From assembly GCA_038087875.1 (NCBI GenBank), contig CM075990.1, forward strand, positions 14,076,001-14,140,000: DNA of 64,000 nt. Direction: 5' to 3'. The DNA is from Malacoraja senta. Lineage: Eukaryota. How positions within the stretch are numbered: position 1 is the stretch's first letter; every line of letters begins with the position of its first letter. This document shows positions 5,326-62,084 of the stretch, piece after piece. Under the pieces are notes generated by a model that ran no database searches, was not told the DNA's origin, and saw only the letters and a list, made by a program, of their open reading frames with translations. A program made the position numbers and the translations under genes.

Positions 5326-5421
5326 ATCACAAAAAGCTGGAGTAACTCTGCGGGTCAGACAGCATCGGAGATTTGTGTCTATCTTCGATTTAAGCCAGCA
5401 TCAGCATGCTCCTTCCTACAC
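5326..5421. mobile_element. Short Penelope-derived fold-back insertion
   Basis: Inverted pLTR pieces with a 14-bp TSD AAAGATCATAGGTT (5312-5325 and 5422-5435). Confidence 0.75.
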
Positions 5422-5974
5422 AAAGATCATAGGTTGTTGAGGTTAGTGTTGTGCAGAGTTCAAGAGATTGATGGCTGTTGGGAAGAAGCCGCTCTTGAAC
5501 CTGATGCGATCTCAATGGGATTCATGCAGTCAATTCCTGCAGAGCTGTTTAATACAGCAGCTATTTCACACCAAGCAATAGCGATGGGGTGTAAAACGTG
5601 ACAGCCAATTGTCAGTGGTCACGGGGGAAGATTGTTGGCATTCACAGTGTCAGCAGTGTGTAAGACCCGCGCTATGACATGTATGGAACACCGAATAGAT
5701 ACATCACTCCCTCAATCACTCATCTGCCCTCGGAGATGATCTGCCACCTCACCAACACATCTCAGTGCCCTTCTGTCAGATTTTTGTTTTCACCATGGAC
5801 ATCCTGGAAAGTTTAACTATATTAAAGGAACTCTACAAATGCAAGAGCCTTTTCACAACTACAAGGGTTGTAGTTGTGAAAAATAAAGTAGCAGTTTTTG
5901 AACTAGAGGAAGAAAGTTCTCCCAAACATTCTGCCCTGCGTTTATCCACAAGCCAAATTGGTCAGTAACATCGC

Positions 5975-6187
5975 AGGAGGGAACTGCAAATGCTAGTTTA
6001 AATCAAAGATAGACACAAAAAGCTGGAGTCTCTCAGCAGGACTGACAGCATCTCTGGAGAAAAGGAATGGGTGACGTTTCGTGTCGAGACCCTTCTTCAG
6101 AAGGGTCTCCAACTGAAATATCACCTATTCCTTTTCTCCAGACATGCTGTATGCCCCGCTGAGTTACTCCAGCTTTCTGTGTCTATC
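5975..6187. mobile_element. Penelope-derived fold-back insertion
   Basis: Two inverted copies of the GACACAAAA.GCTGGAGTAACTCAGC...CCCTTCTTCAG repeat. Confidence 0.75.
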
Positions 6188-7504
6188 ACCAGTAACAGTG
6201 GTTCCTGGAGAACACAGAGAGGATATTTGGAGACATCCTCTCAGATCTCAAAAGACACAGATTATCTGGTCATTATTACATTGCTTGTTGTGGGATCTTG
6301 CTGTTTGTTCTGATTAACTGTCTGGTTTCTTATTCAAAGACGACTAACTTCCTTGGATATTGTGAACGAGCTTCCTTTCTCACATCACAAAAATGCCAGA
6401 GTAATTCAATGGGTCAAAGGTAACTCAATTGGAACCCTTCTCTATGCTGATGGGGAAAGATGGAGCTAGAACGGAACCTAGCACGGAACAGATGGTCAGA
6501 CAAAGGCCAGAGGCAATAAGGCATAAGACTGTGAGATAAGGAGATAAGAGGCTTGAAATGGGAAGCCAGAAGAAGGGAAGATGGATGGGAGAAGGGGAAA
6601 AAGGGTCAGGATTGGGGGAGAAATGGGTGCACATCCATGTGGGGCATAGGGAAGGGAGAGGGGAAAATCCACAGAAGGACATGTTTGAACTAATTGCATC
6701 TCATGCCTGCTAATATTATTTGCTATTGTCTTCTCAGTGAGGTTTCTTCCTGCGTGGGATAGGATCACCAAACACTCTCCTTATTTTTCTTCAGGGACCA
6801 CCATTGCTGGTGCAAGAGTGGGTTCCGGGGTCAGTCTGAAGAAGGGTCTCGACTCAAAACGTCACTCATTCCTTCTCTCCAGAGATGTTGCCCGTCCCGC
6901 TGAGTTACTCCAGCGTTTTGTGTCTATTTCTTGGAACAGTTTTCGGAGCCTTCCCCACTAGGCCTCTGCATGAGGGGCTCAGAGGATTAAACAGGAGACG
7001 TGTCAGTGGAACAGAAGAGTTAAAGGGTTAATATATAAAACGCAGAAAAATGCAGCAAGGCATGCGCGGGCGACTACCATGGAAAGTCTGCAGGACAGGT
7101 GAACAAGATGACTGATTCACCTGCCAGGGCTTTTAATTAGCATCATTAACACATCTGTGCCGGGATGACAGAAACCGTCTTATTCCTTCTGACCAGGAAA
7201 GGTCACATTATTACAAAGTTATTAAATTGTGCTCCCTGTGAGTGCCTGAAGGCTAGAGCATCTAATTCAATTGGGCTGTCATGTTCGATAGGTCTAACAA
7301 GGGGAAAGGAGACATGGGATGCAATTAGTTCAAACATGCCTTTCTGTGTATGTCAATTGGTTCAGGACTAATGGTAACACTGGTCCCTAACACATTCCCT
7401 CCTTCCATAGGGTGCTCATCGTGTGTTTCACTGCACCGAGGAACAAGCAGCGATCGGCACCGAAGCACAGAAGTGGTATTTGGAGAGGAGACAGCGCTTG
7501 CTCG

Positions 7505-7940
7505 AGAGAGAGGGGGGGGGAGAGGGGGGTCGGGACGACAAAGGGGGGATGGGAGAGGGGGGACGGCGAGAGGGGGCGGAGAGAAGGGACGGAGAGAGGG
7601 GATAGAGAGAGGGGACGGGACAGGGGACAGAAAGAGGGTGGAGAGAAGGGGGAAGGTGGAAGAGAGGGGGAGAGAGGGGGGGGAGAGAGGGAGGTGGAAG
7701 GGGGGGAGGGAAGGGGAGGCTGGGAGGGAGAGCGGAGGGGGAGGAAGAGGGGAACAGGAGAGTGAGGGAGAGGGAGAGAGGTAGAGCGGGAGAGGAGGGA
7801 GAGGAGGGAGGGAGAGAAGGAGGGAGGGAAAGGTGGGGAGGGAGGTAGAGGAAGGTGAGGAGAGAGGAAGAGGGAGGAAGGGAGAGAGAGAAAGAGATGG
7901 GGTGAGAGAGTGGGAGAGGAGGGAAGGGAGAGGAGGGAAC
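7505..7940. repeat. Polypurine (G/A) low-complexity tract
   Basis: Directly visible. Confidence 0.95.
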
Positions 7941-8899: not shown

Positions 8900-10290
8900 G
8901 TACACTACTTGCATCCACCTGTCAGTGCTCACCAACCATCACAATCTGGGTGCCTGCAGCGCAAGTGTGGCAAGGCTGATGTGGAGATGGAGAGGGGGGC
9001 GGTTGGATGGACATGGACCAAGATCCACAAACAGGGACACCTCGTGTGTATCAAACATCTGGGTACAGGTGTGTACTGGGCTCTGGACCTCATCATCACC
9101 TGTTCCCAGACCAAGACGAACATTCCAGAAGTGAGATGAGAGAGTTTGCTCCTGATATCAAGGTGGCTGTTGACTGAGTCCAGCATCAAGGAGCCCTGGT
9201 ACAACTCTAGTGAATGGACATCAAGTGAAAGATATCAAAATGGTTGTGGTCATGTCTCATAGTCGGGACAATAGTTGGCCCTGTTGGATGCCAATCATCT
9301 CAGGCCTAGCAGATGATAACAGAGGCTCCTCATTGTAAGGTCCTCAGTCTATCCATCTACATCAACGCTACTTCAATCACCCTGCTTCTATCATTAATTG
9401 AAAAGTGGGGATGTTAGCTGATGATTGCACAATGTTCAACTACTTTCAATTATCCTCAGCAAATGAGTAGGGAGGAACTGCAGATGCTGGTTTAAACCAA
9501 AGATGAAGAAGGGTCTCGACCCGAAACATTACCTATTCCTTTTCTCCAGAGATGCTGCCTGGCCCGCTGAGTTACTCCAGCATTTTGTGCCTATCCTCAG
9601 CAAATGAAGCTGCCTTATCTTTAAGTAGCAAGACTGAGACAATATCCAAGCACAAATAAAATTGGCATGAAAAAAATTCACACTTCCCAAGGCAATGACA
9701 ATGCCCAAACAAGGAGTGTCTAAACTTCCATGGCCTTGTCATTTCTGAATCCTCCACTATCTATATCATTGATGTCACCATTGATCATGAGTTGTTGAGA
9801 GAGAGACTCTGTGATCAATGACTGACCTCCTGACAATATTAGTCATAATAGATGCAATACTCTCTACTTCACTGGATGAATGTGGCTCTAACACTCACTC
9901 ACGAAGCTTAAAGCCACCCAGCACAAAGCAGCCCACCTGAGTGCCACCCATCATCAGATCAAACTCAATTCTTCCTCCTGCTGCCAAACAATGGCTGGAT
10001 TGTGCACTATCAACAAAAGGTACTGCAGTTACTGGCCTGGGTTACTCCAGCAGAACTTCTAAACCATGACCTCTATCATCACGAAGGACAGGAAAACACA
10101 GAGATATCGCCTGTGGATTCCCTTCCATTTGTTGGAAATATATTGTCGTTCCTTCACCATTGTCTGGTCCAAAGCCCAGAACGCTCTCCGCAATACTTTC
10201 ACCAGAGACGCTCAAAAAGTTGGCTCACCGTCACTTTAAAGGCATTTAAGGATGGGCAATAAATGTTGGCCAATGATGCTCAAATTCAAC
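8900..10290 (+). mobile_element. Old degenerate CR1-like LINE
   Basis: RT motif remnant MLADDCTMF at ~9411-9437 and tail AAGGATGGGCAATAAATGTTGGCC at ~10248-10271. Confidence 0.55.
9467..9591. mobile_element. Penelope-derived insertion inside an old CR1-like RT
   Basis: 16-bp TSD TATCCTCAGCAAATGA (9451-9466 and 9592-9607). Confidence 0.8.
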
Positions 10291-11012: not shown

Positions 11013-12822
11013 TCAGATCTTCACCAAGGTCAGCAAAATCACCGAGGGGAGAGAACCGGAGGAGGGGAGCTGTGCGTGGCAGAGGAAGTGAAGAAGAGAG
11101 TTGAAAATGCAGGAGGGAAGTGGAGATGAGGTTGAAGAAGAGGGGATGGGAGGTGGGCTAAGAGGAAGAAGCCAAAGCTGCACATGGAGGTGGCATGAAA
11201 AACCAAATGCTGGAAGAACTCAGAGGTTCAAGCAGCATCCGTTTAATCAATTAACCTACAATCCATCTACGGAATGTAGGAGGAAACCGGAGCACCCAGA
11301 GAAAACCCACAACAGTCGCAGAGAGAACGTACAAACTCCATGCAGACAGCACCCGAGGTCAGGATCGAACATGGGTCTCTGGCATTGTAAGGCAGCAACT
11401 CTACCGCTGCACCACTGTGTCACCCTGAGCCAAATTGGCACACGCCATGAGCAAAAATCCTCCTCCTGATTAATATTAATTCCAGCCTCTTTCATCTGAT
11501 GAACCAGTGCTCATCTGAGTTCACTAACTCCTGGAAGTGCTGGATCAACCCAATGTCTCTGGAAAACATAGATAGGCAACATTTTGAGTCGAGATCCTTC
11601 TTCAGACTCAACATGGACAAGCAACATTATGGGTCGGGACCCTTCTTCAGAGTGGCGTTTTGGGTTGGGACCCTTCATTAGGTAACAGAAGGTGTTCTGG
11701 ATGGAGGATGTGAAAGGTAGAGAAGATAGACGCAAAAAGCTGGAGTAACTCAGCAGGACAGGCAGTATCTCTGGAGAGAAGGAATGGGTGACATTTCGGG
11801 TCGAGGCCCTTGTTCAGACTGTAGAGAAGGAATGGTCGGAGGTAAAATGATGAAACTCGCTGAAAATGGGAGTCGGCAAGATTGGATATTTTTCTTCTAA
11901 ATATACCACTTGATGTGTTCCCATTCGCATTCTTCTTTCAAGCTAATCTCCACTGCAGGGCCAGGCCGCTAATTAGTTTCTCATGCCTCTTGTTTATCTG
12001 CACTTCTCCCCAAATAGAATTCAAATCATTATCTCGACTTCAGTCCCATCAGAGAATTTGGTTTTGTGTGTTTGCTTTCGATGCATCTCCCACATCTTGG
12101 AAATGTTTAAAATGTAGTGATATATAATCCCTGCTGCTCAGAATGGGTTGTCATAACAACAAAATAATAACAGCATCAGTGGAATCTCAGCTTCTTTACA
12201 CTGATGAAGGAGAAAATTAAACATCACAATAACGTGATGATCACTAAAGGAACCAAGGCTAGGGGTGTTTTGGTCTATTCAAAGCCCCGACAGACATAGG
12301 AAATTATGTCCCACATCACAAGCCACTTAATTTACCCTTTACTGCTTCTCATTTCTGATTGCTTCACACATACAAAACAAAATCTCCCCAAAGCCATTGT
12401 AAAATCAGAGGTAGAATTATCATATTTTGTTAAATATGGGGGTCAGGCTAATGGGCAGAAGGCAGGAGGATGGGGTTGAGAGGGAAATATAGATCCGCTA
12501 TGATTGAATGGCGGAGTAAACAATGGGCCGAATGGCCTAATTCTGCTCTCATACCTTATGAACTTATGTTTTTGATATTTCTTTATGACATAGAAGGAAT
12601 GCATCAAGTCCACACAGACTCACTGACCAACCCCATCCTGCCAATAATTTTCACTCTAACCACTCTCTCATCAATTCCAGCACTTACCCACCCAATATGT
12701 CCAGTTTGCAATGGACTATTAACCTACGTTCATGTTCATAAGAGATAGGAGCAGAATTAGACCATTCGGTCCATCAAGTCTACTAAGCCATTCAATCATG
12801 GCTGATTTATCTTTCCCTCACA

Positions 12823-13592: not shown

Positions 13593-13722
13593 TAGGAAGG
13601 AACTGAAGATGCCGATTTAAACTGAAAACAGACACAAAATGCTGGAGTAACTCAGTGGGACAGGCAGCATCTCTGGACTGAAGGAATGGGTGACGTTTCG
13701 GGGTGAGACCCTTCTTCAGTCT
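13593..13722 (-). mobile_element. Penelope-derived single-arm insertion
   Basis: 14-bp TSD ACTTTGATTATGTT (13579-13592 and 13723-13736). Confidence 0.8.
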
Positions 13723-16288: not shown

Positions 16289-19265
16289 GAACCTCATGAA
16301 TCAGGAACACAAAAAGGCCTTGTATTAGCAGCAGAAAGAGTGGCCACGTCACAAACTACCCACTCACCTGCCCCATCAGCACCCTCCTGCCTCATTAGGA
16401 CAAGGGTCTGCAGGCCCCATGTTGGCCTCATCAGCACCATCAGAGATGGAGTGGGAGCGTGTCTTGCTCAATCCCTTTGGACTGCCCAAGATGAAGAAGC
16501 ACATCTCCTGTTGTTATAAACGGCAAGGTAAAATCCTGCAAGTCAGAGCACGGAGCAAACTGAATACATTTTATGAAGGAGGCCAAATTGCAAAGCTGCC
16601 ATGGTCATTGACAGTGGCTAATTTGTAAAACCACCCTACATAAGAGATCAGCAGATATTGCAGGGAATGAAAACTCATCATTAGACACACTCATGGGCAA
16701 TAATAAAATTTGTGTGTACGGTGTTAGGAATGTCATATAGGATTGGATTCAATACAGCAGGTGACTAATCACAGATGGTATCACACAAAGCACTCTTGTC
16801 TCCAGGAGCAGCTCGGCTGGCTGAGAGAGAGTGTTTACCAAGCACTCCACTTTATCTCATCTCCAGCAGCTTCTCAATCTACCCACTCCAATCCCAGGGA
16901 GGGAGAGCTCCTGCAGCAAGGGTGTAGACTGCGATGGTAATCTAATCTGGTTGCACCCGTTGTAATCAGAATTTACAGATTCAATGCCATTGAACGTGTT
17001 CAGAGCAAATGGGGGAATATTGGGCTGAGTTTGACTGGGGTCCTGATTATGTATCCTTCACTGTGGCGACGGACAGACACATTGTGCAGGTTAGTTGTGG
17101 ATGTGATGGGGAGGATCTGTGGCTGGATGTGTATATCATTCACTGAGTTGCGAGGGCAGAACTAAGGCGTATTTAGCACGCATTGTGTTTCCTATTCAGC
17201 CCGTGTCTGATAAGAGCTGAGTCTCACTCTGACAGGAGGACAATGCCCCCCGCCTGACCTCAGAGTGAACCTCTTCACTAATTCATAGCTTTGTTGCTTT
17301 GATGTTGATCCTGGGCGATCTAATCCCCCCCCCCCACCCCTCCCCCTGGCTCCCCTGCCCACCCACCCTTCTCGATTCATTCCATCACTTGATTGTCAAG
17401 CTGGACATGCATGGGGGGGTGATTGGACGGAATGTGGCAGGGTCGGGAATGGGAGTTGATGGAGGGAACCACAGACGGTGACAAAGCCAGAGCACCAGAC
17501 CCAAAGGGGGAGGGAAACGTGTCGAAGAATCAGGTCGGAAGTTCCTCCTGACATGTAGCACAATTTATTCTTGCCGAAAAGCTTGCTTCCGTCCATCTTC
17601 AAGGATCCAAAGACAGACGCAAAAAGCTGGAGTAACTCAGAGGGACAGGCAGCGTGTCTGGAGAGAAGGAATGGGTGACGTTTCGGGTCGAGACCCTTCT
17701 TCAGACTGGTTCGGGACCAGGTCCAAGTTCCCTTCCTGTGGGTGACTTGGGGGACGGGTGGGGGCGTCTCCCTCACCAATTAAATCCCGGGGAAGAACCC
17801 AATCTCACCTTGGGTCAAATCCCCACACAGCAACCGAATCAATCACATCCCCAGTCCTGCTTCCCTGTCTGCAAAGAGGCCACTGACCAACTAGGTAGAG
17901 ATGACCATTGCTGGTTTGACCCCAGTTGGCAGAGGTCATTGGCCAAAGGGGCTGTTTCCACACTATGTGCATCTATGACTCCATTAGCCCTGGTGTTGCC
18001 CACATTTCATGAATAGGTTTAAAACCTGCCTTGCGACACAACCACTTTAAAACACTTTGAGAAGAACTCTGAGACTTAAACTCCCTTAGACTCCCTTAGG
18101 TCAGAGGATGGACATGGAGTGTGGACGGGGACAGGAACCTAGCTGGATGCCCTGCAAATTGGGGTGGAAAGAGGCTGGGGTATGGGAGTTTCAGCTGCTT
18201 CTCAAAGGGTTGTCCGGCTTCTGCCTGTGGTATCAATCCCAAGGGGAAATGGTTTAGTGTAGAGATACGGTGCAGAAACAGACCGAGTCTGCACTGACCA
18301 GCGATCCCCGCACATTAACACTATCCTACACGCACTAGAGACAATTTACACTTATACCAAGTTATTTCACCTACAAACCTGTACGTTTTTGGAGTGTGGG
18401 AGGAAACTGAAGATCTCGGAAAAACCCCACGCAGTCACGGGGAGAATGTACAGACACCATAGAGACAGCACCCGTAGTCGGGGTCGAACCCGGGTCTCTG
18501 GCGCTGCAACTTTACTGCTGCGACACCATGCCGTTGTAAAGGGAGTGGGGGTTGAGGGGGAGATGGAGGAGGGTAGGAGGAGGTTATGTTGTCGGGGTTT
18601 GAGTTGAGGATAGGGTTGAAGAGGAGAATAGTGTTTGTAGATGGAATCGGGAGTTGAGGGGGGGAAGGAGACTCAGGAGGGAAAAGAGGTTGAGGGGGAA
18701 ATGAAAGGAGCTGGGATTGGGTTGAGGGGAGAGGTATGGGTGGGTTGTAGAGAGAGGGTTTGAGTAGAGAGGAGGGATTGGGGAAGGGCAGGAGAGTTAT
18801 GTCAAGTGCCCTGAAGCTAATATTTACCCCTTAGTCAATGACACTGAAACAGATCATCTTGTTATTTTCACTGCCGTCCAAATCAAGTCAAGTTGAGTTC
18901 ATTGTCATATGCACATGAGCAGTGAGATACAGGTTCAATAAAAATCTTGCTGGCAGCAGCTTTATAGGCACATAGACTCAGATAACGCACAAAAACATAC
19001 TTAACTTGCACAATAAATTCTATGTAACAGTAAAATTAAAATACTGTTGCTTTGGAGCTGGCATTAACTAGCACTGCATATATATGCCCTCCAAAAATAC
19101 TGCTCTGAATAGAATGGATAGAGTTCTGTAAAAATGTGAATCATTTATTGGTGTATGTAAAACCTATCCTGGTAGACAACCACTAGAAGGTGGCTGTACA
19201 GCACATTGCAAATCAGTAACTGTTCAGTCGGAATGCTTATCACGAGCTGGAGTCTCGTTTTTTTT

Positions 19266-19574: not shown

Positions 19575-21760
19575 GGAGCTGCAAGAACTTGCACAGGAAC
19601 ACTCTTCCTGCTGGGTTTGCAGCGAAGGTGCCAAGACTAAATACAAATTAATCTATCAACATGAATGAAACAGAATTGTCCCGATCTGCAGAGAGGGAGA
19701 ACATCAGGAGATGTGTTCGCTTATCAAACAGCAAATTGTTCCCAGGGACTGGAAAGGGTTAAAGAGCAAGTGTGTGCTTTTGCAAAGTTGTTTTGCTTTG
19801 TGTCCTGCCTGCCCTCGGCAGCTCACTGTGCTGGGTCTAGGTGTGCCCGTGACTGTGGAACAGGACACTCTCCCTGTACCACCCAGGACAATTAACTGCT
19901 GAGAACCAGGCTAATGACTCTCTTCCCACACACAGACCCAGGCTGGCCTGCGCTGATACTTTTACTTGTTGGCTACTCGTCCTCCCCTGGGCTTTTTCCG
20001 TCGAGGAAGTGTCTCGGAAGCCCTGGCCTTCCTGTTCACACTGTACCACACCACAAGTTCCCAGTTGGGTGTGTTTCTCTGCAGAATGCTGGCAAGGTCC
20101 AACAGCAACACTGATTAACCCTTCGCACCTCTCTTTATTGCTTTCTTCTGCACTGGTTCATTTCATTCCCACTCACTTTAGTGCCAGAGACTTGACCTGA
20201 GCCGTCATCTCTCCATGTCCCTCCATAAATACTGTCCGACCTGCTGACCTCCTTCAGTAGTTTGCCTTTAACTCACTTTAGTGCTAAACCACTGCTTCTC
20301 CCAATTCGTCAAGGAAGAGCCCTGGAGGCACAAGGAACTGCAGATCAAGAACCTCGAGCAAAACACAAAGTGCTGGAGGAACTCAGCGGGTAGGGCAGCA
20401 TCTGTGGAGCGAATGGGTGGGTGACGTTTCGAGTCAGGACCTTTCTTCAGATGGTGCCTGACCTGTTGAGTTCCACCTGGCACTTTGCTCAAGAGCTTTG
20501 GAGAGATACAGCCAAACAGCCTTAAAGGACAGAAACAGGCCCTTCAGCCCATCCAAGCCCTTGCTACCCATCTTGTACCTGTCAACAATGTATCCTGCAA
20601 AAGCAAAGAATACAGGTTTCCTCAGTCTTAAGTACTGCTCTATGCAATGCCCTGCAATTGAGCACATCTATTCATTCACCTTATTGCTAAAGGTGGGATG
20701 ATGCTGTACAACAAATGTCTGCTGCACTGGGCTGCTTAAAATTCAAGGTGAATGTAAATCACTTTGGGCACTCTGCGGTCACAAAAGACTTGGAGTCATA
20801 GAGTGATACAGTGTGGAAACAGGCCCTTCGGCCCAACTTGCCCACGTCAGCCAACATGTCCCAGCTATAAACTAATGAATGAATGAATGAATGAATAGGT
20901 TTATTGGCCAAGTATGTACACATACAAGGAATTTGCCTTGGTGCTCTGTTCGCAAGTAACAACATGACATAAAACGTCAAACATTAAAACATTAAGAATG
21001 AAACATTATAGTTTAAACATGTGAATGAAATAAAATACCAGAGCAAAAGGAGGCTACAGGCTCGTGGGAAAAAGCTGCTTTATGTCTGGCCGTGGTGGCT
21101 TTGACAGTCCAGAGTCGCCTTCCAAAATATAACTCTTATTTTAAGTGTGCTAGCTGGTTCTGCATTTTATTTTTTTTAAACTGGGTATTTCCGTGCTTTC
21201 CTCAAGGCGTGCAATCCATGGGGGCAACAAATTCCCCCACAGGATTGAAGAAGTGGCTGAGCCCTCCTGGACAAGTTTCCCAGCCTCACCACAAACCCTG
21301 AAAGCGGAAGCCAACGAGATACGGAGAATCAGACAGGAGCAGGAAGAAATAGGAAGTTCTTCAGCCATACAATGGGCTGCACAGCGACACAGGTTTCATT
21401 CTGCCTTCATAAGTTGTGTGGATTTTGCACGTTCAACCCCGTGACTATGTGGGTTCCCTATTTGTGCTCTGATTTCCTCGCACATTGCAAAGATATGCTT
21501 TGTGGCAGCTAAATGCTCATTGTTAACAGGTCCGTAATGTGTAGGTCAGTGGAAGAACATGGGGAAAGTTGATGGGAATGTGTGGAGAATAAAGGGTCCC
21601 GACCCAAAACGTCACCCATTCCTTCACTCCATAGATGCTGCCTCACCCGCTGAGTTTCTCCAGCATTTTTGTCATCCTTGAATTAATGCAGGATTAGTGT
21701 AAAAGGTATAAAAGGTTAGTGGACACTCAGTGTGGACTCTTTGTGCTGAAGAATCTGTTA

Positions 21761-25611: not shown

Positions 25612-26379
25612 TCATGGAGATGAAAGACCTCAAAAAGAGTTGGTGCAGGACTGAGGGTAAATAGGGAATTCCAGAGCATTAAAAGCATACAATAGAACAT
25701 AAATACACCTCATCAGGAGAGAGAAACAGAGTTAACATCAGGATTGTTTTGTTAAAAAAGACACATAGTGTGGAGTAACTCAGCAGGTCAGGCAGCATCT
25801 CCGGAGAACAAGGATAGGCGACATTTTGGGTTGGGACCCTTCTTCAGGCTGATTGTAGGGGGAGGGGGAGGGGGAGGGGGAGGGGGGGAGGGGGAGGTGG
25901 GGGGGGGAGGAGGGGGAAGAAAGCTGATTGTGAGAGAATACTACAATTGTATGTGATGATTCCAGAATGAGAGATAAAGACTGAGTGAGAGAAGAAAAAT
26001 AACTGCAGAAAGTAAAAGGAACGAGGGACAATCTTTGCTTGCTTCTGGAAAGGTTTAAAAAAACTCTTGTTTACTGCTGACCTAGATCAGTCACTGAATT
26101 CACCAACCAGATAAAATATCCCCATGATCCCTTGGGCAAGATGTTTAAAGTCTGTGTGTTACATTCCATGGAGTGCTGCTTCAGGTGAGATGACAACACA
26201 CTAAATGTAGGTTGGTTAACACCTGAGCCAAATAATTGACAGGAGTAGGGCTTTCCGGTGCATTAGGTATACATATCATGATACGTCAAGCACAACATGT
26301 TGCAACATAGCTTTGGGCTATTCAGCCCATCATGCCTGTGTCGTTTTTAATAGAACTATCTAAAGAAGTCCTCCACCTC

Positions 26380-36181: not shown

Positions 36182-36231
<50 letters not shown>

Positions 36232-40370: not shown

Positions 40371-40553
40371 AAGGCAGACAAATGCTGGAGAAACTCAGCG
40401 GGACAGGCAGCATCTCTGGATAGAAGGAATGGGTGACACTTCAGCCCAAAACGTCACCCATTCCTCTCCAGAGATGCTGCCCGTCCCGCTGAGTTACTCC
40501 AGCATTTTGTGTCTATCTTCAGTGTAAACCAGCATCTGCAGTTCCTTCCGACA
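40371..40553. mobile_element. Penelope-derived fold-back insertion
   Basis: 11-bp TSD GTATCATACTG (40360-40370 and 40554-40564). Confidence 0.8.
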
Positions 40554-41926
40554 GTATCATACTGTTTGGTACTTGGGCCCCCAATATTCATAATTTCCAT
40601 CAGTGATTTGACTGGAAGAACCAAATGTCAGATATTCATAATTTGTCGATGATCCAATAGGGCTTCCTCCAGGTGTTCTGGCTTCCTGTCATATCCCAGA
40701 GATGATTAGGTTGGTGGACTAATTGGTCTTTGTGTGTAGGTGAGTACGATAATCTGCAGGTTGATGGAAATGTGGTGAGAATAAAATGGTTTTCGGATAG
40801 GATTAGTGTAAATTGGTGCTTGGTGGCAGCATGTATTTGGTGGGCCAAAGGGCCCGTTTCCATGCTGTATCACTCCCTAAACTCTTTGGTTGATATAATG
40901 TGGATGAAAGGGCCATTGAGGAATCTGCACAATGAGCATAAGTATTCAGGCTGAAGAAGGGTCTCAACCCAAAAACGTCGCCCATTCCTTCTCTCCAGAG
41001 ATGCTGCCTGTCCCGCTGAGTTACTCCAGCATTTTGTGTCTATCATAAGTATTTCATCTATTGGGATGCAAGTTATTAGATTCATTGGAATTGAAATTCA
41101 AAGTATTTAATCCATAGCAATTCAATATAATAAAAATAATAGTTAAGATTTTGATTGAGAGTATAGACAATGGCAACATTTGGAAACAGCTTTGATTCAG
41201 TTAAAGTTATTGCTTAAGTTAGACACTGACATGCAATAAATACCATAACTAATGTTGCTGTATCATAATTGAAGCTACCTGGTGGAGATTTATTATTTGA
41301 CAATCAAAAAGAATACAAAAGAAGATTTAAAAATCAGAGATGTTTCAGCCGATTGCTCAGAGAATTAGCGTCTTGTGATAAAAAAAAACAGAGGAAATCT
41401 AACTGCCATCCTACCTGGGGAAAAAACCCTGACTGAGGACCTGGATTTATTACTGATGATCTGTTGGGTGAGAACATCAGATAGATTTATTGACTTAACT
41501 TTGATAGATGTGGAAAGCAAGGACCCTGAATGGCAATATAATCTGATACAGCATCCTCTCATATGATTAACGGGAGGTAATTGAAGCAACCGACTAAACA
41601 TAAGATTCCTCTGGGTCCCACAGCTAGAAGGCTTTTGCACTGAAGTTATTATCTACTTGAAATGGAATTCTTAACTTTATTATGCTAATGGCTGCTATCA
41701 TGACAGATCCCCATTAAAATCATATTTCAAAGTATTGCTATTATAGTTAATATAATTGTAATGTGGTGCTGATTGGCCATGTACGCCCTACGCTGAAACA
41801 CTTTGGATAATGACTATCTTAACTCAACTCTTTTCATAACTCTAACAGTGCCCCAATTAGTGGAATGGCCACAAATGTTTAAAGAAGGAACCAGAGGATA
41901 TCACAACACAGACATTGTAATTATTC

Positions 41927-42139
41927 ATGTAGGAAGGAACTGCAGATGCTGGTTTACACTGAAGGTAGACAGAAAATGCTGGAGTAACAGTCAGATTCTC
42001 TGGATAGAAGGAATGGGTGACGTTTCGGGACAAAACCCTTCTTCAGGCTGAAGAAAGGTCTCGACCCGAAACGTTACCCATTCCTTCAATCCAGAGATGC
42101 TGCCTGTCCCGCTGAATAACTCCAGCATTTTCTATCTAT
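41927..42139. mobile_element. Penelope-derived fold-back insertion
   Basis: TSD CATTGTAATTATTC / CATTGTGATTATTC (41913-41926 and 42140-42153). Core CTGAAGA...GAAACGTT at 42048. Confidence 0.8.
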
Positions 42140-43139
42140 CATTGTGATTATTCCATCCATTTGGAATTACCTTCCTACCTCCCAAATACTTCCCTGTTAC
42201 CCTGCAAGGAAGGATTGTGTCTGTGGCGTGCCAGAATTAACAGTTTTTTTCATTTAGCTCTATCAAAAGTTGTTAAAATTTTGAATCTTTCAATCAAATC
42301 CTCTCCTTAGTTTATCTCAAACTAGCTTCTTTATTCTCTCAACATAGCTTAAAAATACAGCAATATATTTGTTCAGTTACTGGGCAACATCCAAAGGTCT
42401 GGACCATTCATCCATAGACATGAGTTTGAATCCCATCATGGCACCTAGGAACTATACAATGAAGTAATGTAAAAAATCAGGTATTGTATCCATGCAAATA
42501 CTGGATTGCATTAAAATCTATCTGTTACATCAAGATACAAGGAAGGAAAATGTAGACACAAGGAACTGCAGATACTGATTAACAAAAAAAAAGATATAAA
42601 GTGCTAGAGTAACTCTGCTGGTCAGTCAGCATCTCTGGAAAACATGGATAAATGATGTTTCGGGTTGGTGCCCATCCATCAGTCAGCATCTCTGGAGAAC
42701 ATGGATAGGAGACGTTTCAGTTCAGGACCCTTCAAGGTCCTGACTCAAAACATTATCTAACCATGTTCTCCATAGATGCTGCCTGACCAGCTGAGTTACT
42801 CTGACATTTTGTGTCTTGTTTTGCTGCAAGGAAGGAAATATAGTTCCCCCGTCTGATAATAAACGAAAAAAATGTCGAGAATACACAACAGGTCAGCCAG
42901 CTTCTGTGGGAAGAGGAACATAGTTAATGCTTCAGGTCCATGAGCTGTTATCTCCATGGATGCTGTCTGACCTGCTGAGTGTATCCAACATTTTATTTTG
43001 TTTTATTTTAGAATTCCAGCATCCTATAGTTTCCGTACCAGATTTGGCCTTTGGTTCTGACTCTGGACCCACCAACATGATTAACTCTTAATTGCCTCCA
43101 CAGTTTAGGGGTAAATAGTTTAGTTTAGTTTATTAACGT

Positions 43140-44959: not shown

Positions 44960-45744
44960 AAAATTCAGCAAAAAGATGGTGGCATATCAAATTCATGGGT
45001 GATAGAAGTAGAATTAGGCCATTCGGCCCATCAAGTCTACTCCGCTATTCAATCATGGCTGATCTATCTCTCCCTCCTAACCTCAGTAGGGAAATATGTA
45101 AATTCAATGAATAAATTCACTATTTAGTAACCCTGAACCCTGACATCATGATCTGAAGATGTTCAAATCACACCCTGGATTAAATTTAGTGGGCAGACTA
45201 ATCTGAAGTAAAGACTGCAATCAGGAGAGGTGAATTTAAAACTACTTAAACTACATAAAAACAAATCTAGTTCCATAATGCCCTCGAGGGAAGGACTTCT
45301 GTTGTCCTCTGTATGATGCCAACCACAACACTAACTCTGAAATGCTGTCAGTTGCACCAAACATGATGCAAACATACTGGAAGAATACAACTGGCTGGAC
45401 CTGACATTGATTCAGACATGATAAAGTATTGTCCGGCCTTGTTCACTCTGCTAACTGATGTCAATCAGTCTGAAAAAGAGTCTCGACCCGAAACATCACC
45501 CACTCCTTCTCTACAGAGATGCTGCCTGTCCCGCTGAGTTACTCCAGAATGTTGTGTCTACCTCCAAGTTAGGAGAGCTGACCCAGCCAGTGATCTTACT
45601 GAACTGCCTGATATCAAATCATAGCTTTTGGGCAATGTACCATTCCATTCTTCCATCTAGATCTCTAATCAGAGGTGATGAAATAGTGGCCCCAGAGACA
45701 GAGTTCCTCAATATTGAATCTGGATCCTATGAAGTCTCAAGGCG

Positions 45745-46242
45745 AAGATAGACACAAAAAGCTGGAGTAACTCAGCGGGACAGGCAGTATCTCTGGAGAA
45801 GGATAGGGTGACGTTTCGGGTCGAGACCCTTCTTCAGACTGGTTAGGGATAAGGGAAATGAGAGATATAGACGGTGATGTGGAGAAATAAAGAACAATGA
45901 ATGAAAGATATGCAAAAAAGTAATGATGATAAAGGAAACTGCCATTGTTAGCTGTTTGTAGGGTGAAAATGAGAAGCTGGTGCGACTTGGGTGGGGGAGG
46001 GATAGAGAGAGAGGGAATACTAGGGCTACCTGGTGAGAGAAATCAATATTCATACCACTGGGCTGTAAGCTGCCCAAGCGAAATATGAGATGCTATTCCT
46101 CCAATTTGCGTTTAGCCTCACTCTGATAACGGAGGAGAACTAGGACAGAAAGGTCTGTGTAGGAATGGGAAGGAGAATGAAAATGTCCAGCAACAAGAAG
46201 ATCAGGTAGGTTCAGGTGGGCTGCGCGAAGGTGTTCCGCGAA
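45745..46242 (-). mobile_element. Penelope-like element 3' fragment: GIY-YIG endonuclease C-terminus plus 3' UTR/pLTR
   Basis: Minus strand reads FAEHLRAAHLNLPDLLVAGHFHSPSHSYTDLSVL...EAKRKLEE*HLIFRLGSLQPSGMNIDF, the typical PLE GIY-YIG tail, followed by the hammerhead-bearing repeat found throughout the window. Confidence 0.88.
45807..45840 (-). ncRNA. Minimal type I hammerhead ribozyme-like motif in Penelope 3' region
   Basis: agt-CTGAAGA-A-GGGTC-TC-GACCC-GAAA-CG-TC-acc: CUGANGA and GAAA boxes, stem II, palindromic ACGT at stem III and a UC cleavage triplet end. Stem I is very short. Confidence 0.6.
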
Positions 46243-47397
46243 GGGTCAAACACGATTAAATCGCCTGCTGATTGCCATCTACTCAGTTGATGAATCCCAA
46301 CACATTTGAAGAAGCATTAAGAAGAGACTCCAATGTGATGGAAAAAACTGTGTGAATGGATGAACCATCTTCGCTTCTACAATTATTTTCATAAAAATGA
46401 AAATTACTGAGGCAATTCACCAGTTGGGGCAGCATCTTTGGGGAACATGGATAAGTGACCCTTCTTCAGACCCGCTAAAGTACTAACCTGGAATGTCACA
46501 TATCCATGTTCTCAAGACATGCTGACTGACCCGCTGAGTTACTCCAGAGGGTCAGGTAGACATCTCATCCAAAGGGTCGGGTAGACATCTCATCCAAACA
46601 CTAATGGATGAGAGTATCCAAAAGAAATCAAAGCAAATTTTAATTCAACATTTTTTTTCCTTTGGACTAATCCTGAGGTATCAATCCTCAAATCCTGGAA
46701 GAGCAAAGGAATTCTTACAGGATGGTACCAAGGCTGTAAAGAGGAAGTGGCAGCAACATCCAAATAGCAACAGTCATTGCATTAGGTTAGACATTGCCAC
46801 CTGCAGGCGCATAGAAGTGCTGCAGGATATTTGGAAATGCTGTGAAAATATATGTCAAATGCATTCACTATCCATCACCAGAAGCAGGTCCTGTGAGTGT
46901 CTTTTTTTACACAGTTAAAGAAAAAGAAAACCACTCTGTTTATTTCAGAGGTGAAGCTACGATTTACTGAACTGAATCTCTTTGAGAGTATTTTAAAGAC
47001 AGAAGATGTCTGGGTTGTGATTGCAGCCGACAAAATATTGGTCTTCTGGAGAAAGAGGTTACGTTTAAGGTGCAGCCTTTATTTCATGGCTGGAAGGTTC
47101 TTTACTTTCTCCAACACAGGGCAAAAATCCAGATGGACATCACATTAGCAACAGAGTGATCATTTCCCCTCCTTCTGCGTTTAGACCCTTCAAGTGAATT
47201 GTTTATGAAGTTGCAGCTGAAGGTGGAATCCTGGTGGATAATGGGGAGTGACACCAACTGCACAAATCAAAGCCCATCTGTATCCGGGGCACGGCAATTA
47301 GTCACAATCACCTGTACTGGCTGTTTGACTGGTACAAATGCAACTCTCAGCCAATGAAAGATGCATTCCCTATTAGATGTGAGGCTGAGATTTTTTT

Positions 47398-48067: not shown

Positions 48068-48085
48068 AGCACCATCTGGTGGCCA
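48068..48085 (-). promoter_or_regulatory. Candidate CTCF site
   Basis: TGGCCACCAGATGGTGCT, close to the consensus TGGCCACCAG(G/A)(G/T)GGCGCT. Motif match only. Confidence 0.4.
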
Positions 48086-49864
48086 AAGATTTTGACTAGG
48101 GAACACAAAATGCTAGAGTAACCCAACGGGTCAGGAAGCATCTCTGGAGAACATGGATAGGTGATGTCTCAGGTCAGGACATGAAACAAGACCTATCCAT
48201 GTTCTCTAGAGATGCTGCCTGACCCATTGAGTTACTCTAGCATTTTGTGTCCTATTGTGTAAACCAGCATCTGTTTGTTTATTCAAACAAAAGTTCATTG
48301 TTTCTACCTTTGAAAGGCAGGGGAGTGGGAGAAAGAGCAGAGTTTGCTCTTTGTCCTTTAGACATCCGCTGTTGTAGGAGCTTAGTAGTTCAGTAAGTGT
48401 CTCTCAGTCTTTGTATCTTTGAGTGCAGGGCTTGCAGTGCAGTTGCATAAGTCTATTACATGAGGGGCAACCTTTTCACTCAGTGGGTGGTGGGTATATG
48501 GAACGAGCTGCCAGAGGAGGTAGTTAAGGCAAGTACTATAACAGCATGTGAAAAGACTCTTGGACAGGTGTATGGACAGGAAAAGGTTAGTTGACACGAG
48601 CCAAAACCAGGCAAAGGGGACCAGCTTAGATGTGATACTGGGCTCTATGAAGTGACATTGGGCTCTATGAAGTGATATGGTGAAATGGTTCCTATTTTTT
48701 CTTAATACTGATTGAGGGAGGTGGGAGTGGTATGCACGGCCAGTAGCATGCCAATCCCTTTGCCCACACACCTAGCCACATCCTCTACCAAATTCAGAAA
48801 AAAATTAAAGCAGACATGGGCTGAGCAAATCTGATTGCAACCACTTTCTTGTTTGGGCCAGTAGAGATTGAATGGCCTATCTCTGTCATTTTTGTACCGA
48901 GGACATGCTATACACAAAACATCACTGCATAATTTCACACAGGCTGAAACATACCCAGTTTATGAAATACACTTTGGACCCATGGTGCCTGCTGTATAAT
49001 TAACAGTCCGAGATTGTGCCACCTCGGTGCTGAAATTCAACACGGGAAGTAAATGGGAAAAAATTCACTCAGAGATCCAATTATCTAATGTAAATTGAAC
49101 AGGTCATCTAACCAGTGGAACGAATGTCATCACAATGATTTAACTGGGCGTAATTTAAGTAACCAAACACAGAGCGACTAGTGGCGGCCCTCAAATAATA
49201 TTTCATTAGCCACTACCCGAAACACCTTCCTGTAGTTCTGTACTCCCTCCTGCCTCGATCTTTTCCTAACCTCTGCAAGAAGACACGAGAGTGATTGAAT
49301 TAGCAATTCGATTTTCTTTAAAAGGCAAATCTATTTTCAGAACATCTCACAGGAACTAAACATACCATGAAGTACTTTTGGTGCATTGTACGGAGCATGG
49401 TAGCCAGGTTGATCACAGAAAGTTCCAAACGTCTTTTGGTGCATTGAGTGGAGGGTAAATATTGTCCAGGAACCGGCCTTTTTTTGTTACGGTATGCACT
49501 GGTATGATGCACCAACAGCGCTAGTTGGTCGTCAGCATGGACTCAATGGGCACACGGTGCCACGACATGTGTGCAGGTGTTTGTTCCAAAGACGGTACCT
49601 GTTGTTCTCACTGTGCACAGATGTTGAGCTTGAGCTGTGCAGGTCTAGTTTTTTCAGAGATACAGTGTGGAACTAGGTCCATGCCGACCATCGATCACCC
49701 ATACACTACTTTTCACATTTTTGCATCCCACACACGAGCGGCAATTTTACAGATGCCAATGAACCTACAAACCTGCACGTCTTTGCAATGTGGGAGGAAA
49801 CCGGAGCACCTGGAGAAAGCCCACAAAGGTCACAGGGGTGAACGTACACAGGTGAGTTTAGAAG

Positions 49865-50251: not shown

Positions 50252-50294
50252 TAAACTCTGTACAGTAGTCAGGATCGAAACTGTTTTAACCCCA

Positions 50295-54595: not shown

Positions 54596-55147
54596 GAACA
54601 GTATTCCTGTAGTTTTACATAGGTTGTCATCATTAAATAGCTATCAACATTTACAAAGCGGTTCCTTGCTTTGTCGGAGACGTAAAACGGTGACAGCTCC
54701 TCTTGCGGCAAAACATGTCGCCAGGTTCACTGACATTATTATGAATCAGTTTATTCGTTCCTTCAATTGATTTTTGAGGATCTGGGTCACTTTTTTCTTC
54801 TTCGTAATAAAAGGGGTTTTGGTGCTCCAGGAAGCAACAGATTTTCACTTCAATCCCCAAAGCTCTAGTCTCATTCCTATCTTACACTAAGACCTCCCTC
54901 CTTCTCCCGTTTGATCTCCTCAACAAGCTACTTGCTCTCACCCCTCCAGCAGCACCCATCTCTTCACCACATACACATGCTCTGTACCTGCTCCAACCTC
55001 ACTGCAGCCCTCTCATTAAGGCCACCAGTCTACTCTCAAATGGAGATGACTGAAGATAAAGAAACTGGGATGAGAATATCTCCGGATCACTTCACTGAAG
55101 TCAGCATCAGCAATGACCCAGGACTCATTGAACTCTTAAGAATCTTT

Positions 55148-55649
55148 GTGTAGGAAAGAACTGCAGATGTTGGTTTAAACCGAAGAGAGACACAAAAAGC
55201 TGGAGTAACTCAGCGGGACAGGTAGCATCTCTGGAGAGTCACGGTGGCGCAACGCCGGGTACACGGGTTCGATCCCGACTACGGGTGCTGTCTGTACGCA
55301 ATTTGTACGTTCTCCCGGTGACCTGCGTGGGCTTTCTCCAAGATCTTCGGTTTCCTCCCACACTCCAAAGACGTACAGGTTTGTAGGTTAATTGGCTTGG
55401 TAGATGTGAAAATTGTCCCTAGTGGGTGTAGGATAATGTTAATGTGCGGGGATCGCTGGTCGGCGCGGACCCAGTGGGCCGAACGGGTCTGTTTCCGCGC
55501 TGTATCTCTAACCATAACTAAACTAAAGAAGGAACGGGAGACATTTCGGGTCGAGGCGCTTCTTCAGAGTCTTGACCCGAAACGTCACGCATTCCTTCTC
55601 TCCGGAGATGCTGCCTGTCCCGCTGAGTTACTCCAGCATTTTGTGTCTA
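55148..55649. mobile_element. Penelope-derived fold-back insertion with a nested V-SINE (55238-55527)
   Basis: Flanked by TCTTAAGAATCTT / TCTTAAGACTCTT. The SINE splits the CTGGAGA|GAAGGAA consensus. Confidence 0.75.
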
Positions 55650-59113: not shown

Positions 59114-59631
59114 CTGTGGGGAAAAGAGAGGCTTGTTCCATCAGAGCTGGACACAACAGCAGGGCCATGGGGAGGAGGAGGAGGAGGAGTAGGGTAAGAG
59201 GAACCGACTGGGGATTGGTGGAACCACAGAGGGTGAGATCAACACTCCCCACATTTGGGGAATGCAGACGTAAGATGGTCAATAACAAAACCAAGGAATT
59301 TGTGTGAGACTTTCCCTGTGAAGATAGACACAAAATGTTGGAGTAATTCCATGGGTCAGGCAGGATCTCTGGAGAAAAGGAATAGGTGATGTCTGGGCCT
59401 GTGTTTAGTTTAGTTTAGAGATACAACTTGGAAACAGGCCCTTCAGCCCACCGAGACCATGTCGACTAGCGATCACACAGATAGGGACAATTTTATAGAA
59501 GCCAATTAACCTACAGATCTGCAGGTCTGCGGAGATGTGGAAGTCCACGTGGAATGATGGACATGAAGTTTAAAGATGCAATTAAGGGGTGAAGCTGAGT
59601 GAGTAAGTGGCAAACATCACTCCATACTTAA

Positions 59632-59937
59632 AGGATTGGACAGGCTTGCAGATGCAGGAAAAATGTTGGGGGAGTCCAGAACCAGGGGTCACACTTTAAG
59701 AATTAGGGCTAGGTCATTTAGGACTGAGATGAGGAAAAACTTTTTCACCCAGAGAGTTGTGAATCTGTGGAATTCTCTGCCACAGAAGGCAGTGGAGGCC
59801 AATTCACTGGATGTTTTCAAGAGAGAATTAGATTTAGCTTTCAGGACTAAAGGAATCAAGGGATATGGGGAAAAAGCAGGAACAGGGTACTGATTTTAGA
59901 TGATCATATTGAATGGCGGTGCTGAATGGCCTACCCC
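59632..59937 (+). mobile_element. CR1 LINE 3' fragment in the last PSD intron (antisense to the gene)
   Basis: SRTRGHTL...FFTQRVVNLWNSLP. Ends ~15 nt from the splice donor. Confidence 0.9.
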
Positions 59938-59952
59938 TGCATCTATGCCCAC

Positions 59953-60096
59953 CTCGAACTCCAAGTATTCCTCCTTCTGCTTGTACTCCTCCAGCTCTTT
60001 GCCCTTCGCCTTCTTGTCCGGAGGGAATGAGTGATGCTCGGCCAAGTCCGTGGTCATCGCCTTCAGCCGGGCATCGTGAGCCTTTATCTGCTCCTC
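59953..60096 (-). CDS. psd: Penultimate coding exon of a PH and SEC7 domain-containing protein (PSD/EFA6 family), coiled-coil region
   Basis: 144-nt phase-0 exon bounded by ...tggcAG and GTgggc. It encodes EEQIKAHDARLKAMTTDLAEHHSFPPDKKAKGKELEEYKQKEEYLEFE, which resembles the PSD-family coiled coil (recalled human PSD: EQVRTHEAKLKAMASEL...QKEAYLEFE). Paralog identity (PSD vs PSD2/PSD3) is not certain. Confidence 0.9.
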
Positions 60097-62084
60097 CTGC
60101 CAGACAGTGAACAAAAGAACAAGATCTCAATCCAGTCCACCCCCCCCCCCCCCCCTCCACCCCCACACACGTAGGACGCACTCAAAGCTGTCCTGTAGCT
60201 CATTGGCTTTGAGAACAGGAGCTGGTAACTCCTTGCCATTCCCTGCATCAGCCAGCAGAGGCTGCCACTGCCCACCACAGTCCACAACATGACGGGCACC
60301 TCTGTCGGTTCACATGGGTTTGGGCATCTGATCTCGTTGCCGAGGCTCGGTGAGGGACATTGTCCAATTGTGCCCTTAGGCCAGGTTTGACACGTGCTAA
60401 TGGAGAAACAAGGAACTGCAGATGCTGGAATCTTGAACAAAACACAAAGTGCTGGAGTAACTCAGTGAGTCACGGCAGAATCTTTGGAGGATGTGAATAG
60501 GTGATATTTCAGGTCGGGGCCCTTCTTCAGATCCTCCTGGAAGAGGGATCCTGACCAGAAACATTATTTATTGATGTCCTCCAGTGATGCTGCCTGACCC
60601 GCTGAGTTACTCCAGCACTTTGCGTGTGGGACATGTGGCGATTTTGATGATGCCACAGACACACACAGCAACACACTTACCACCTGCATCCAATGGAGCA
60701 GCAAGAGAGAGTGGGTGGAGGACAAGTCCAGGTGTCTGGTTGGCCATTCCCCACACAAGAACACAGGGACAAAGACTTGTAAAATCCATCACAGATCTGC
60801 AGCAGCGCTACACTGTGCAAATGTTAGCAGATTGGTAACACATCGGTATTCTATCCACTTGGCGGTAGCTTTATCGGAGGTCTTGTTGTTGATGTCTCTC
60901 CAATTCTGGTCTCTTGACCATCTCCTATTTTAAAGGCTCCACCCTTGTAGTCCAAAGCTACTTCTGCCAAGATCGTAAGTCTATAAAAGTCTTTCGCTAA
61001 ACTTATCTGTCTCTCTTTCCTCTTACAAAGTAGTCCTAACATTCCTGTAAAACTGCAGCAAGTAAGAATGTCACTGTTCCAGTCTATACGCGGTGCGCAT
61101 GATAAATATCCACTCTCAATATTATTACAATCTTTGATTTGATCATCTGCTCTAGTATCCCTTCAGTCTAATTTGGTTTATTCTATTGCAAAATGGCACA
61201 GTTGCTACCTCACAGCGCCAGAGACATGAGTGTGATCCTGCACCCGGGTGCTGTCTGTGTGGAGTTTGCATGGTTTCCCTGTGACTGTGTGGGTTTCCTC
61301 TGGTTCCCTTCCACATCCCAAAGACACACAGGTTTGTAGGTCAATTGGTCTCTGTAAGTTACCCCCAATGCGTAGGGATGAGAAAGTGGGATAACATGAA
61401 ACTGGTGTGTAAGTGATGGTTAGAATGGACTCAGTGGGCTGAAGTGTATGTTTAAATGCTGCTTCTATTAATTTAATTAATTTAATCAATCAATCAGGAT
61501 GATTCTGATGAAGGGACTTTGACATGAAATGTTATCTGTTTCTCTCTCCACAGATGCTACCTGACCTGCTGAGTATTTTTGAATTTATTTCAGATTTTCA
61601 TTATCTGCATTCTTTTTGATTTTTATCTAGTATTCCTTCACATAGCTTGGGCAGTCTCTGTTATGAAGCACCCTATACATTTTAGATACAGTAATAGTCA
61701 AGAGTGTTAATAGCAAAATTGTTATATGTTCTTGGACTGGAACAATTAAATTCTTACTTGCTGCAAGTTTGCAGGTATATTAACACAACTAAACATACAA
61801 TAAACAATAATAAAATCAATTATCAGTTAAGGGGCTGTCCCACTGCAGTGACCTAATTTGCGAGTTTAGACGAGTTTGCTCTCGACTCAAACTCGCAGCA
61901 TGGTCGACACGAGGTCCTATGAGGTTACTGGAACGCTCCTTCATGCTCGAGGGAAGTTCCCGAATACTCGTGGCCGAATAGGTTGCAGAAACATTTTCAG
62001 CATGTTGAAACATATTCCACTAGTAAAATTTGGTCGGCATGGTTCTTTTTAACTTGTAGTGCAGTGGAGTGGGGTCGCTACTTA

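Follow-up and report, generated by a model that had tools for sequence, protein, structure and literature searches.

Tiny, often inverted Penelope-like insertions in Malacoraja senta: probable 5′-truncated element ends primed from both target strands

Penelope-derived insertions in the window

The stretch of DNA analysed here, referred to as the window, comprises 64,000 nucleotides of the Malacoraja senta genome (GenBank assembly GCA_038087875.1, contig CM075990.1, positions 14,076,001 to 14,140,000 of the forward strand) and contains a swarm of tiny insertions built from one to three copies, or arms, of the 3′-terminal region of a Penelope-like element (PLE). Searches of the window with its segment 45601–46500 as query, followed by searches with seven arms, located the repeat. 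Seventeen arms, which as seeds match by construction, served to build a profile that yields 50 arm matches at E≤0.5 as against none in the reversed window, and the matches span 4201 bp or 6.6% of the window. Curation, with junctions and subfamilies assigned by eye, covered 25 loci and omitted eight match groups that are weak, old or tandem (11177, 11535–11681, 20186, 24180, 42875–43023, 51287, 55796 and 56028). A first-pass annotation of this DNA had counted more than 15 insertions and quoted 14 positions; the repeat is present at all 14, and the curated count rises to about 25.

Whole inserts measure 95–280 bp and lack an open reading frame (ORF), the arms representing the final 100–135 nt of a PLE. 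Written in the sense of the hammerhead ribozyme that it carries, the arm model is 133 nt long and places the CUGAAGA box at positions 6–12, helix II at 14–25, GAAA at 26–29 and the predicted cut after 33, with an inner 3′ end at ~92–102 and an outer one at ~132–135. Because many arms have a tail of ~35 nt that extends past the part common to the fragment at 45741–46245, the repeat unit exceeds this common part in length. Each of the two 3′ ends, inner and outer, is preceded by one copy of a 7-nt direct repeat (model positions 80–86 and 110–116). Both copies are complementary to positions 55–60, and the direct repeat is a possible signal for two cDNA start sites; an alternative-hairpin switch that would define these sites appeared in only 2 of 6 folds. 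At least two arm subfamilies occur in the window, and young-looking arms are off consensus at 1–7 of ~82 non-CpG sites. The PLE-derived copies in the window are old relics.

Exact flanking repeats of at least 10 bp, taken as target site duplications (TSDs), occur at 6 of the 25 curated loci and in none of 600 mismatched flank pairs; with mismatches allowed, a flank-repeat score of at least 8 is reached at 12 of the 25 loci compared with 13 of the 600 pairs. The TSDs are 8–16 bp long and AT-rich (66%, as compared with 55% for the window), and the six TSDs quoted in the first-pass annotation are exact at their loci (14, 16, 14, 11, 10 and 12 bp). Fixed TSD length and fixed termini would indicate a DNA-based miniature inverted-repeat transposable element (MITE) with terminal inverted repeats, a reading suggested by the hairpin-like shape, small size and high density of the copies. 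Within the window, however, TSD length ranges over 8–16 bp, the two ends of a copy are unequal and differ by the tail, single arms bear TSDs of their own, and the repeat is homologous to the end of an endonuclease-bearing PLE. The DNA MITE is refuted because TSD length is variable and the ends are asymmetric; its likelihood is negligible, and the earlier proposal of retro-insertion stands.

The parent element

The best-preserved trace of the parent within the window is the fragment at 45741–46245, whose 3′ part is the arm repeat. The claim that the repeat forms the 3′ region of a GIY-YIG Penelope fragment was correct in this respect, with the qualification that the reading frame at 46033–46245 (minus strand; 71 residues, one stop) covers only the C-terminal half of the endonuclease and lacks the GIY-YIG motif itself. 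The frame is 55% identical to a whale-shark reverse transcriptase (RT) and GIY-YIG protein. Its sole longer match is a skate protein (69%), itself a chimera of an RT piece of LINE (long interspersed nuclear element) type and an endonuclease piece; the latter leads to six longer proteins, of which the five examined are RT and/or GIY-YIG proteins from sharks, sea urchin and metagenome. RVT_1 and GIY-YIG matches in these relatives are mostly below the Pfam cut-off. Between RT and nuclease, a CxxxxCxxC linker is intact in three of the five and nearly matched in the other two. Craig 2021 (PMC8557442), which like the other publications below is cited from parts of its text, gives this cysteine-rich linker for Neptune and Nematis. 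Since the closest full relatives carry the motif common to Neptune and Nematis, the parent PLE is likely Neptune-type, an assignment made from linker similarity; the 45741–46245 fragment itself begins after the linker.

A Pfam search gave no match for the 71-residue fragment, a search of metagenome and viral contigs with the arm motif returned 0 loci, and a representative-protein search with a chimeric protein gave mostly LINE-type RT matches with one relevant row among 150. The window holds neither an RT remnant nor a full-length element with its ORF between two pLTRs (pseudo-long terminal repeats), and endonuclease sequence occurs at only 2 of the 25 loci. A second, older PLE end is probably represented by an arm at 3311–3429 and an endonuclease remnant at 4426–4761, the two being linked by inference. 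A public gene model named neuromedin-U receptor 1 contains a stretch of the parent PLE endonuclease, which suggests either chimeric annotation or exonisation.

Arrangement of the arms

All 11 scorable two-armed copies are head-to-head, with their 3′ ends toward the flanks, and in all 11 the ~35-nt tail is present on one arm and absent from the other (tail scores 12–26 versus 5–9; permutation of tails among arms, p=0.003). A further pair at 46392, degraded and left unscored, has the same head-to-head orientation. The centres of the 11 copies are all different and consist of a palindrome, an overlap of 2–4 nt or filler. From this constant geometry combined with unique centres it follows that each fold-back formed at integration and does not belong to a replicating MITE or fold-back family. 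Two origins had been offered by the first-pass annotation: stereotyped truncation products are supported, whereas a non-autonomous fold-back family is not, because all 11 centres differ.

Arms of one insertion diverge by 0.138, as compared with 0.228 between insertions; they share private variants, and the true pairing of arms ranks best of 120 in each of two subfamilies. Among nine inner junctions of the main subfamily, four show 4 nt of microhomology, in that the element sequence carries on into the TSD, as opposed to 2.2% by chance. Eight of ten two-armed copies folded are predicted to form strong hairpins (z −5 to −22), while 5326 and 9467, in which the tail is inverted against the arm with little overlap, are not hairpins in these predictions. 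The suggestion that every fold-back copy would yield double-stranded RNA if transcribed could thus hold for the eight and does not extend to these two.

Inverted arms might also arise if one cDNA snapped back at a short palindrome and copied itself with no second priming event, as published for rotifer PLEs (PMC3846280). Private variants common to both arms agree with such self-priming, as do the centre of 41927, a short palindrome at the box, and the near-palindromic centres of 42550 and 5975. However, the mechanism does not predict the fixed inner end of second arms with its target microhomology, the non-overlapping copies 5326 and 9467, or those copies whose tail-less arm extends further 5′ than the tailed one, and self-priming appears improbable to us.

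Contigs from four public sequencing runs were aligned to 39800–49000, and the following statements cover the joints listed, besides which 29008 more joints exist. Loose ends with unrelated long flanks appear among the top joints listed: two runs have them at a tail end (40549, 40553) and three at 41044, the latter signal mixing true ends with tail-bearing copies. Contigs of a second organism, with flanks ~5–8% different, bridge the junctions 40371, 45462 and 46245 with at least 31 letters on each side, so these insertions predate the split from that organism.

The 5′ ends of the arms

A tally of 5′ ends, assigned by eye, comprises 26 arms of 14 bounded insertions. Eighteen arms stop at model positions 2–13, four at 16–31, two at 47–52 and two at 86–96, and position 1 is not passed by any of them. 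Eighteen stops fall within 12 nt around the box, as compared with eight in the 1947 nt downstream. With ten unbounded arms added, 23 of 26 arms reaching position 13 stop between −8 and 13. The earlier remark that many arms end just past the CTGAAGA box agrees with this clustering. Breakpoints in the window tabulated against the predicted cleavage site, a comparison that the first-pass annotation had proposed for the whole genome, show no coincidence with it: none of the 26 arms in the window begins there (33–35), the nearest start lies 3 nt upstream of the cut, and 18 arms stop 20–31 nt upstream of it. The ribozyme did not set the arm ends. Since no arm ends at the cleavage site, the template would have been uncleaved, with something 20–31 nt upstream of the cut ending the cDNA; uncleaved RNA is described as template in vitro by Frangieh 2024 (PMC11167929). 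In the arm at 13685–13722, two changes turn the first 45 nt into a longer local hairpin, possibly templated by its own 5′ end.

In our judgement the favoured candidate for the cDNA stop, although short of an even chance, is the 5′ end of the RNA template. Annealing at the short palindrome overlapping the box together with stalling before the pyrimidine tract is a tenable second candidate; a short master copy seems unlikely and a splice-related block unlikelier still. A 3′ splice-site origin of the boundary was also considered, given the pyrimidine tract followed by CAG and an intron in D. virilis that ends at helix I. It received low weight, since an upstream exon common to the copies is not seen and relatives lack the AG.

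Because PLE reverse transcription starts internally, it could start at the pLTR copy at the RNA 5′ end. The swarm would then consist of run-off (‘strong-stop-like’) cDNAs from the 5′ pLTR copy, ~100–135 nt long and reaching the transcription start 3–4 nt before the box, with both target strands priming. This extension is tentative and more likely wrong than right: the D. virilis start is placed ~120 nt upstream of its hammerhead (PMC2377424, PMC4209133), and the boundary's initiator-like 7-mer, which 1.1% of positions carry, is absent in invertebrate relatives. No PLE paper using the term strong-stop was found, nor, by title or abstract, a PLE-mechanism paper on twin priming.

The same boundary might instead mark a short non-autonomous PLE parasite. 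Its single-arm RNA of ~135 nt would be transcribed from short copies whose 5′ ends lie just before the hammerhead and would be mobilised in trans, with fold-backs arising anew at integration. Three TSD-bounded single arms starting at positions 2–3, within 1–2 nt of one another and 3–4 nt before the box, point in this direction, as does the scarcity of endonuclease sequence among the loci, and non-autonomous pLTR derivatives are known to exist (PMC8557442; Li 2026 bioRxiv 10.64898/2026.07.22.740005). Yet the arm of the endonuclease-bearing copy is equally near the consensus (4 of 80 non-CpG differences versus 1–7 of ~82), the copy at 17610 continues into parental sequence, the boundary is identical in two subfamilies, and both promoter and transcript are hypothetical. 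A parasite of this kind is therefore rated as unlikely.

The hammerhead ribozyme

The conserved core fits a minimal type I hammerhead with a bulged base before helix II, a 4-bp helix II, a palindromic ACGU replacing helix III and a 2-bp helix I. The minimal hammerhead with palindromic helix III that had been proposed is thus genuine: it is fully intact, with a perfect stem II, in only three arms (boxes at 17704, 35596 and 45837), and it recurs in distant relatives. In 4 of 6 related metagenome loci (three by pattern, the fourth by profile), the same core lies ~100–190 nt behind the nuclease match, at ~45–50% protein identity; the helix II loop differs in these loci, and helix I contains compensatory pairs. 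Helix II is 83% paired across 23 sequences. The two inner pairs of helix I, the only ones to hold, show two-sided changes in five and three sequences, counts inflated by the relatedness of these sequences, and the outer two are mostly broken.

Across subfamilies, the non-CpG bases of the core are significantly more conserved than the rest of the arm (3/177 versus 124/1031 changes; 6/121 versus 262/1769 in a less biased subset). Extra conservation of the core within the main subfamily is not significant (3/120 versus 46/710, p=0.10), and the catalytic G, itself part of a CpG, has mutated in 6 of 30 arms, as compared with 42 of 146 at other CpG sites. It follows that the hammerhead is conserved in the source elements and decays neutrally in the copies. 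In minimum-energy predictions, both monomer and dimer adopt non-catalytic alternative folds, and an Rfam scan of the window gave 18 matches at E≤5, all below the gathering score and none of them a hammerhead.

A real and conserved hammerhead motif, together with the degenerate head-to-tail core array at 11535–11681, might suggest a ribozyme-processed retrozyme whose mobile unit stems from hammerhead cleavage and circularisation. Such an origin is very unlikely, given that 0 of 26 arms begin at the cleavage site, that the copies are dispersed or head-to-head and not in tandem arrays, the array at 11535–11681 having no intact cores, and that the catalytic G decays like other CpG sites.

Two-strand priming as the probable origin

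We consider it probable that the insertions are dead-on-arrival, extremely 5′-truncated copies of a Neptune-type PLE pLTR, made by the RT and GIY-YIG protein of the element with priming from both target strands. In the proposed pathway, a dimeric RT-nuclease would introduce staggered nicks in both target strands, 8–16 nt apart. One target 3′ end would prime cDNA at the outer start site, corresponding to the tail end. The second would use the inner site, located ~35 nt further upstream, in many cases by way of a 4-nt primer–RNA pairing. Both cDNAs would be extended toward the RNA 5′ side, usually stopping just past the hammerhead core, and would then be joined head to head by microhomology or filler to give a fold-back with one tail; priming from one end only would give a single arm. 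The hammerhead would be carried along uncleaved and decay afterwards. Two-strand priming, the order of these steps and the reason for the cDNA stop are what we infer. The scheme has a biochemical counterpart in a PLE protein described as cleaving and extending both strands, predicted to be a dimer and using two internal start sites that bound the tail (Frangieh 2024, PMC11167929).

Several points weigh against this explanation. The copies are few and come from a single window, with junctions and subfamilies judged by eye, and a convincing TSD is absent at 13 of the 25 curated loci. The element of Frangieh 2024 (PMC11167929) is a Poseidon PLE that, in the available part of that report, starts without target homology and shows no strand difference in start site; for these reasons the one-tail rule and the microhomology seen here go beyond that study. 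Head-to-head PLE junctions have been attributed to self-priming (Arkhipova 2013, PMC3846280). Overlapping arms need strand displacement or two RNAs, both hypothetical, and the similarity of arms within an insertion could stem from later gene conversion. Among the joints listed for the four sequencing runs against 39800–49000, none represents an empty site.

Feature list and neighbouring repeats

Table 1. PLE-derived copies and related features, in window coordinates
Position	Strand	Feature	TSD (left / right) and remarks
3311..4761	-	Probable second, older endonuclease-bearing PLE end	Arm 3311-3429 and degenerate endonuclease 4426-4761; other repeat at ~3530-4100
5326..5421	.	Two-armed copy with minimal arm overlap, right arm tailed	5312-5325 / 5422-5435
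5971..6189	.	Fold-back copy, tail on left arm	5963-5970 / 6190-6197
6831..6930	+	Single arm without tail	Looked for, none found
9467..9591	.	Inverted tail and sense arm, non-overlapping	9451-9466 / 9592-9607
11535..11681	-	Three degenerate head-to-tail partial copies of hammerhead region, period ~45
11726..11820	-	Single arm, inner end	11717-11725 / 11821-11829
13593..13722	-	Single arm with tail	13579-13592 / 13723-13736
17606..17716	-	Single arm, intact hammerhead, box at 17704	No convincing TSD; ~8 nt more parental sequence upstream
20328..20490	.	Two-armed copy, second subfamily, tail left	20315-20327 / 20491-20503, imperfect
21591..21680	+	Single arm	None found
25752..25860	-	Single arm entering C-rich tract upstream	No TSD; compensatory stem I pair
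33124..33184	+	Short diverged arm
35443..35695	.	Fold-back copy, tail left, ~30-nt central filler	35425-35442 / 35696-35714, imperfect
Box at 35596		Intact hammerhead on right arm of 35443..35695 copy	Predicted cut after 35623
40371..40553	.	Fold-back copy, tail right	40360-40370 / 40554-40564
40947..41043	+	Single arm, inner end	40937-40946 / 41044-41053
41927..42139	.	Fold-back copy, tail left, joined at short palindrome overlapping CUGAAGA box	41913-41926 / 42140-42153 (1 mismatch)
42550..42826	.	Three-armed copy, second subfamily, tail left	42538-42549 / 42827-42838
45462..45563	+	Single arm, separate insertion facing 45741 copy	No TSD
45741..46245	-	5′-truncated autonomous-type PLE end	GIY-YIG endonuclease C-terminal half, ~190-nt pyrimidine-rich spacer, hammerhead, inner 3′ end
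45808..45839	-	Intact minimal type I hammerhead	CUGAAGA from 45837; predicted cleavage between 45810/45809
46392..46548	.	Degraded head-to-head pair	Ends not scorable; no tail signal
48102..48273	.	Fold-back copy, second subfamily, partial tail right	None found
55147..55649	.	Fold-back copy, tail left, split by nested ~285-bp interspersed repeat (55239-55524)	55134-55146 / 55650-55662 (1 mismatch)
59318..59394	-	Single arm	No convincing TSD
60397..60629	.	Fold-back copy, second subfamily, tail left	Doubtful
61501..61574	+	Old diverged arm

The repeat nested in the left arm of the 55147 copy resembles a short interspersed nuclear element (SINE), has a short tandem tail and has many related copies in the window. 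A palindromic element of another kind lies at 21760–22076; its two inverted-repeat pairs (39 and 48 nt, 92–98% complementary) are nested, and it has the appearance of a genuine non-autonomous DNA transposon with no relation to the PLE arms. At 12475–12824, two inverted copies of one LINE-type 3′ end lie 170 nt apart, with related sequence at 44992–45085. Two similar fragments at 3532–4212 and 10501–11091, of which the first gave no Pfam match, contain frames that we take to resemble the C-terminus of a LINE with a restriction-like endonuclease. Two minus-strand RT C-terminal fragments at 51450–53430 are presumably CR1-like. A repeated pair of ~210 bp (62085–62297 and 63481–63693; span 62085–63693) flanks a frame at 62468–62833 that lacks a Pfam match and that we assume to be similar to a Tc1-type transposase. 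Besides the 71-residue PLE fragment, four window frames were searched against Pfam, likewise with no match. Long GT/CA-rich arrays and a perfect 68-bp duplication occupy 2179–2884, 35907–37602 and 32308–32443.

Relation to known systems

Inverted pLTRs, a one-sided tail, TSDs, junction palindromes and solo or opposite-strand minimal hammerheads are already published features of PLEs, and as a class of element the swarm is ordinary. In L1 twin priming, the second target nick primes internally through microhomology, which leads to an inversion. The geometry resembles that of 5326 and 9467, whereas here both start sites are fixed and the arms usually overlap.

Complex insertions of endonuclease-positive PLEs (PMC8557442; PMC3846280) share with the copies described here heavy 5′ truncation, a head-to-head inverted pLTR, a tail at one end, variable TSDs and junction palindromes; their tail of 30–40 bp lies beside an inverted 5′-truncated pLTR, and TSDs measure 8–10 bp in rotifers (PMC3846280). 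In contrast to these, the inserts in the window comprise only 95–280 bp, contain no ORF and have their 5′ ends piled up at the hammerhead box. As described by Cervera and de la Pena 2014 (PMC4209133), minimal hammerheads in the PLEs of metazoans have in common with the present ones the CUGANGA box, a single bulged base, a G-C closed helix II, GAAA, palindromic 15.2–16.2 positions and a short helix I. That report ascribes thousands of solo minimal hammerheads and opposite-strand pairs 100–700 bp apart to truncated PLEs; its available part does not name cartilaginous fish, and it reports no end-mapping. In the window, helix II has 4 bp and helix I 2 bp, and the arm ends are mapped. PAc, the Poseidon element of Anolis (PMC11167929), likewise has a tail downstream of the hammerhead with an RT start site at each of its boundaries, together with extension of both strands, use of uncleaved RNA and AT-rich targets. 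It belongs to another PLE clade, however, and the available part of that paper gives neither primer–template homology nor a model of fold-back formation. Non-LTR (long terminal repeat) retrozymes (Li 2026 bioRxiv 10.64898/2026.07.22.740005), present in one chondrichthyan tested, are also non-coding, pLTR-derived and hammerhead-bearing, but consist of head-to-tail tandem units, each with a hammerhead, whereas the window copies are dispersed or inverted.

The origin of the inverted copies and of the tail in PLEs has been described as still undefined (PMC8557442). The literature consulted, in which subscription journals are largely uncovered, yielded no description of a fixed 5′ boundary or of two-strand priming as the source of PLE fold-backs, and the fixed 5′ stop just upstream of the ribozyme may be new. 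For genome annotation, the copies serve as a warning, since PLE hairpins resemble MITEs and draw sub-threshold matches to microRNA families in Rfam. Dense, TSD-bounded and tiny, the copies constitute a natural record for testing the in vitro model of Frangieh 2024, the points of comparison being one tail per fold-back, microhomology at the inner start and the absence of ends at the ribozyme cut. If they were indeed run-off cDNAs, these fossils would map the transcript start of Neptune and show two-strand priming in vivo, and the short copies could re-amplify as a SINE-like parasite.

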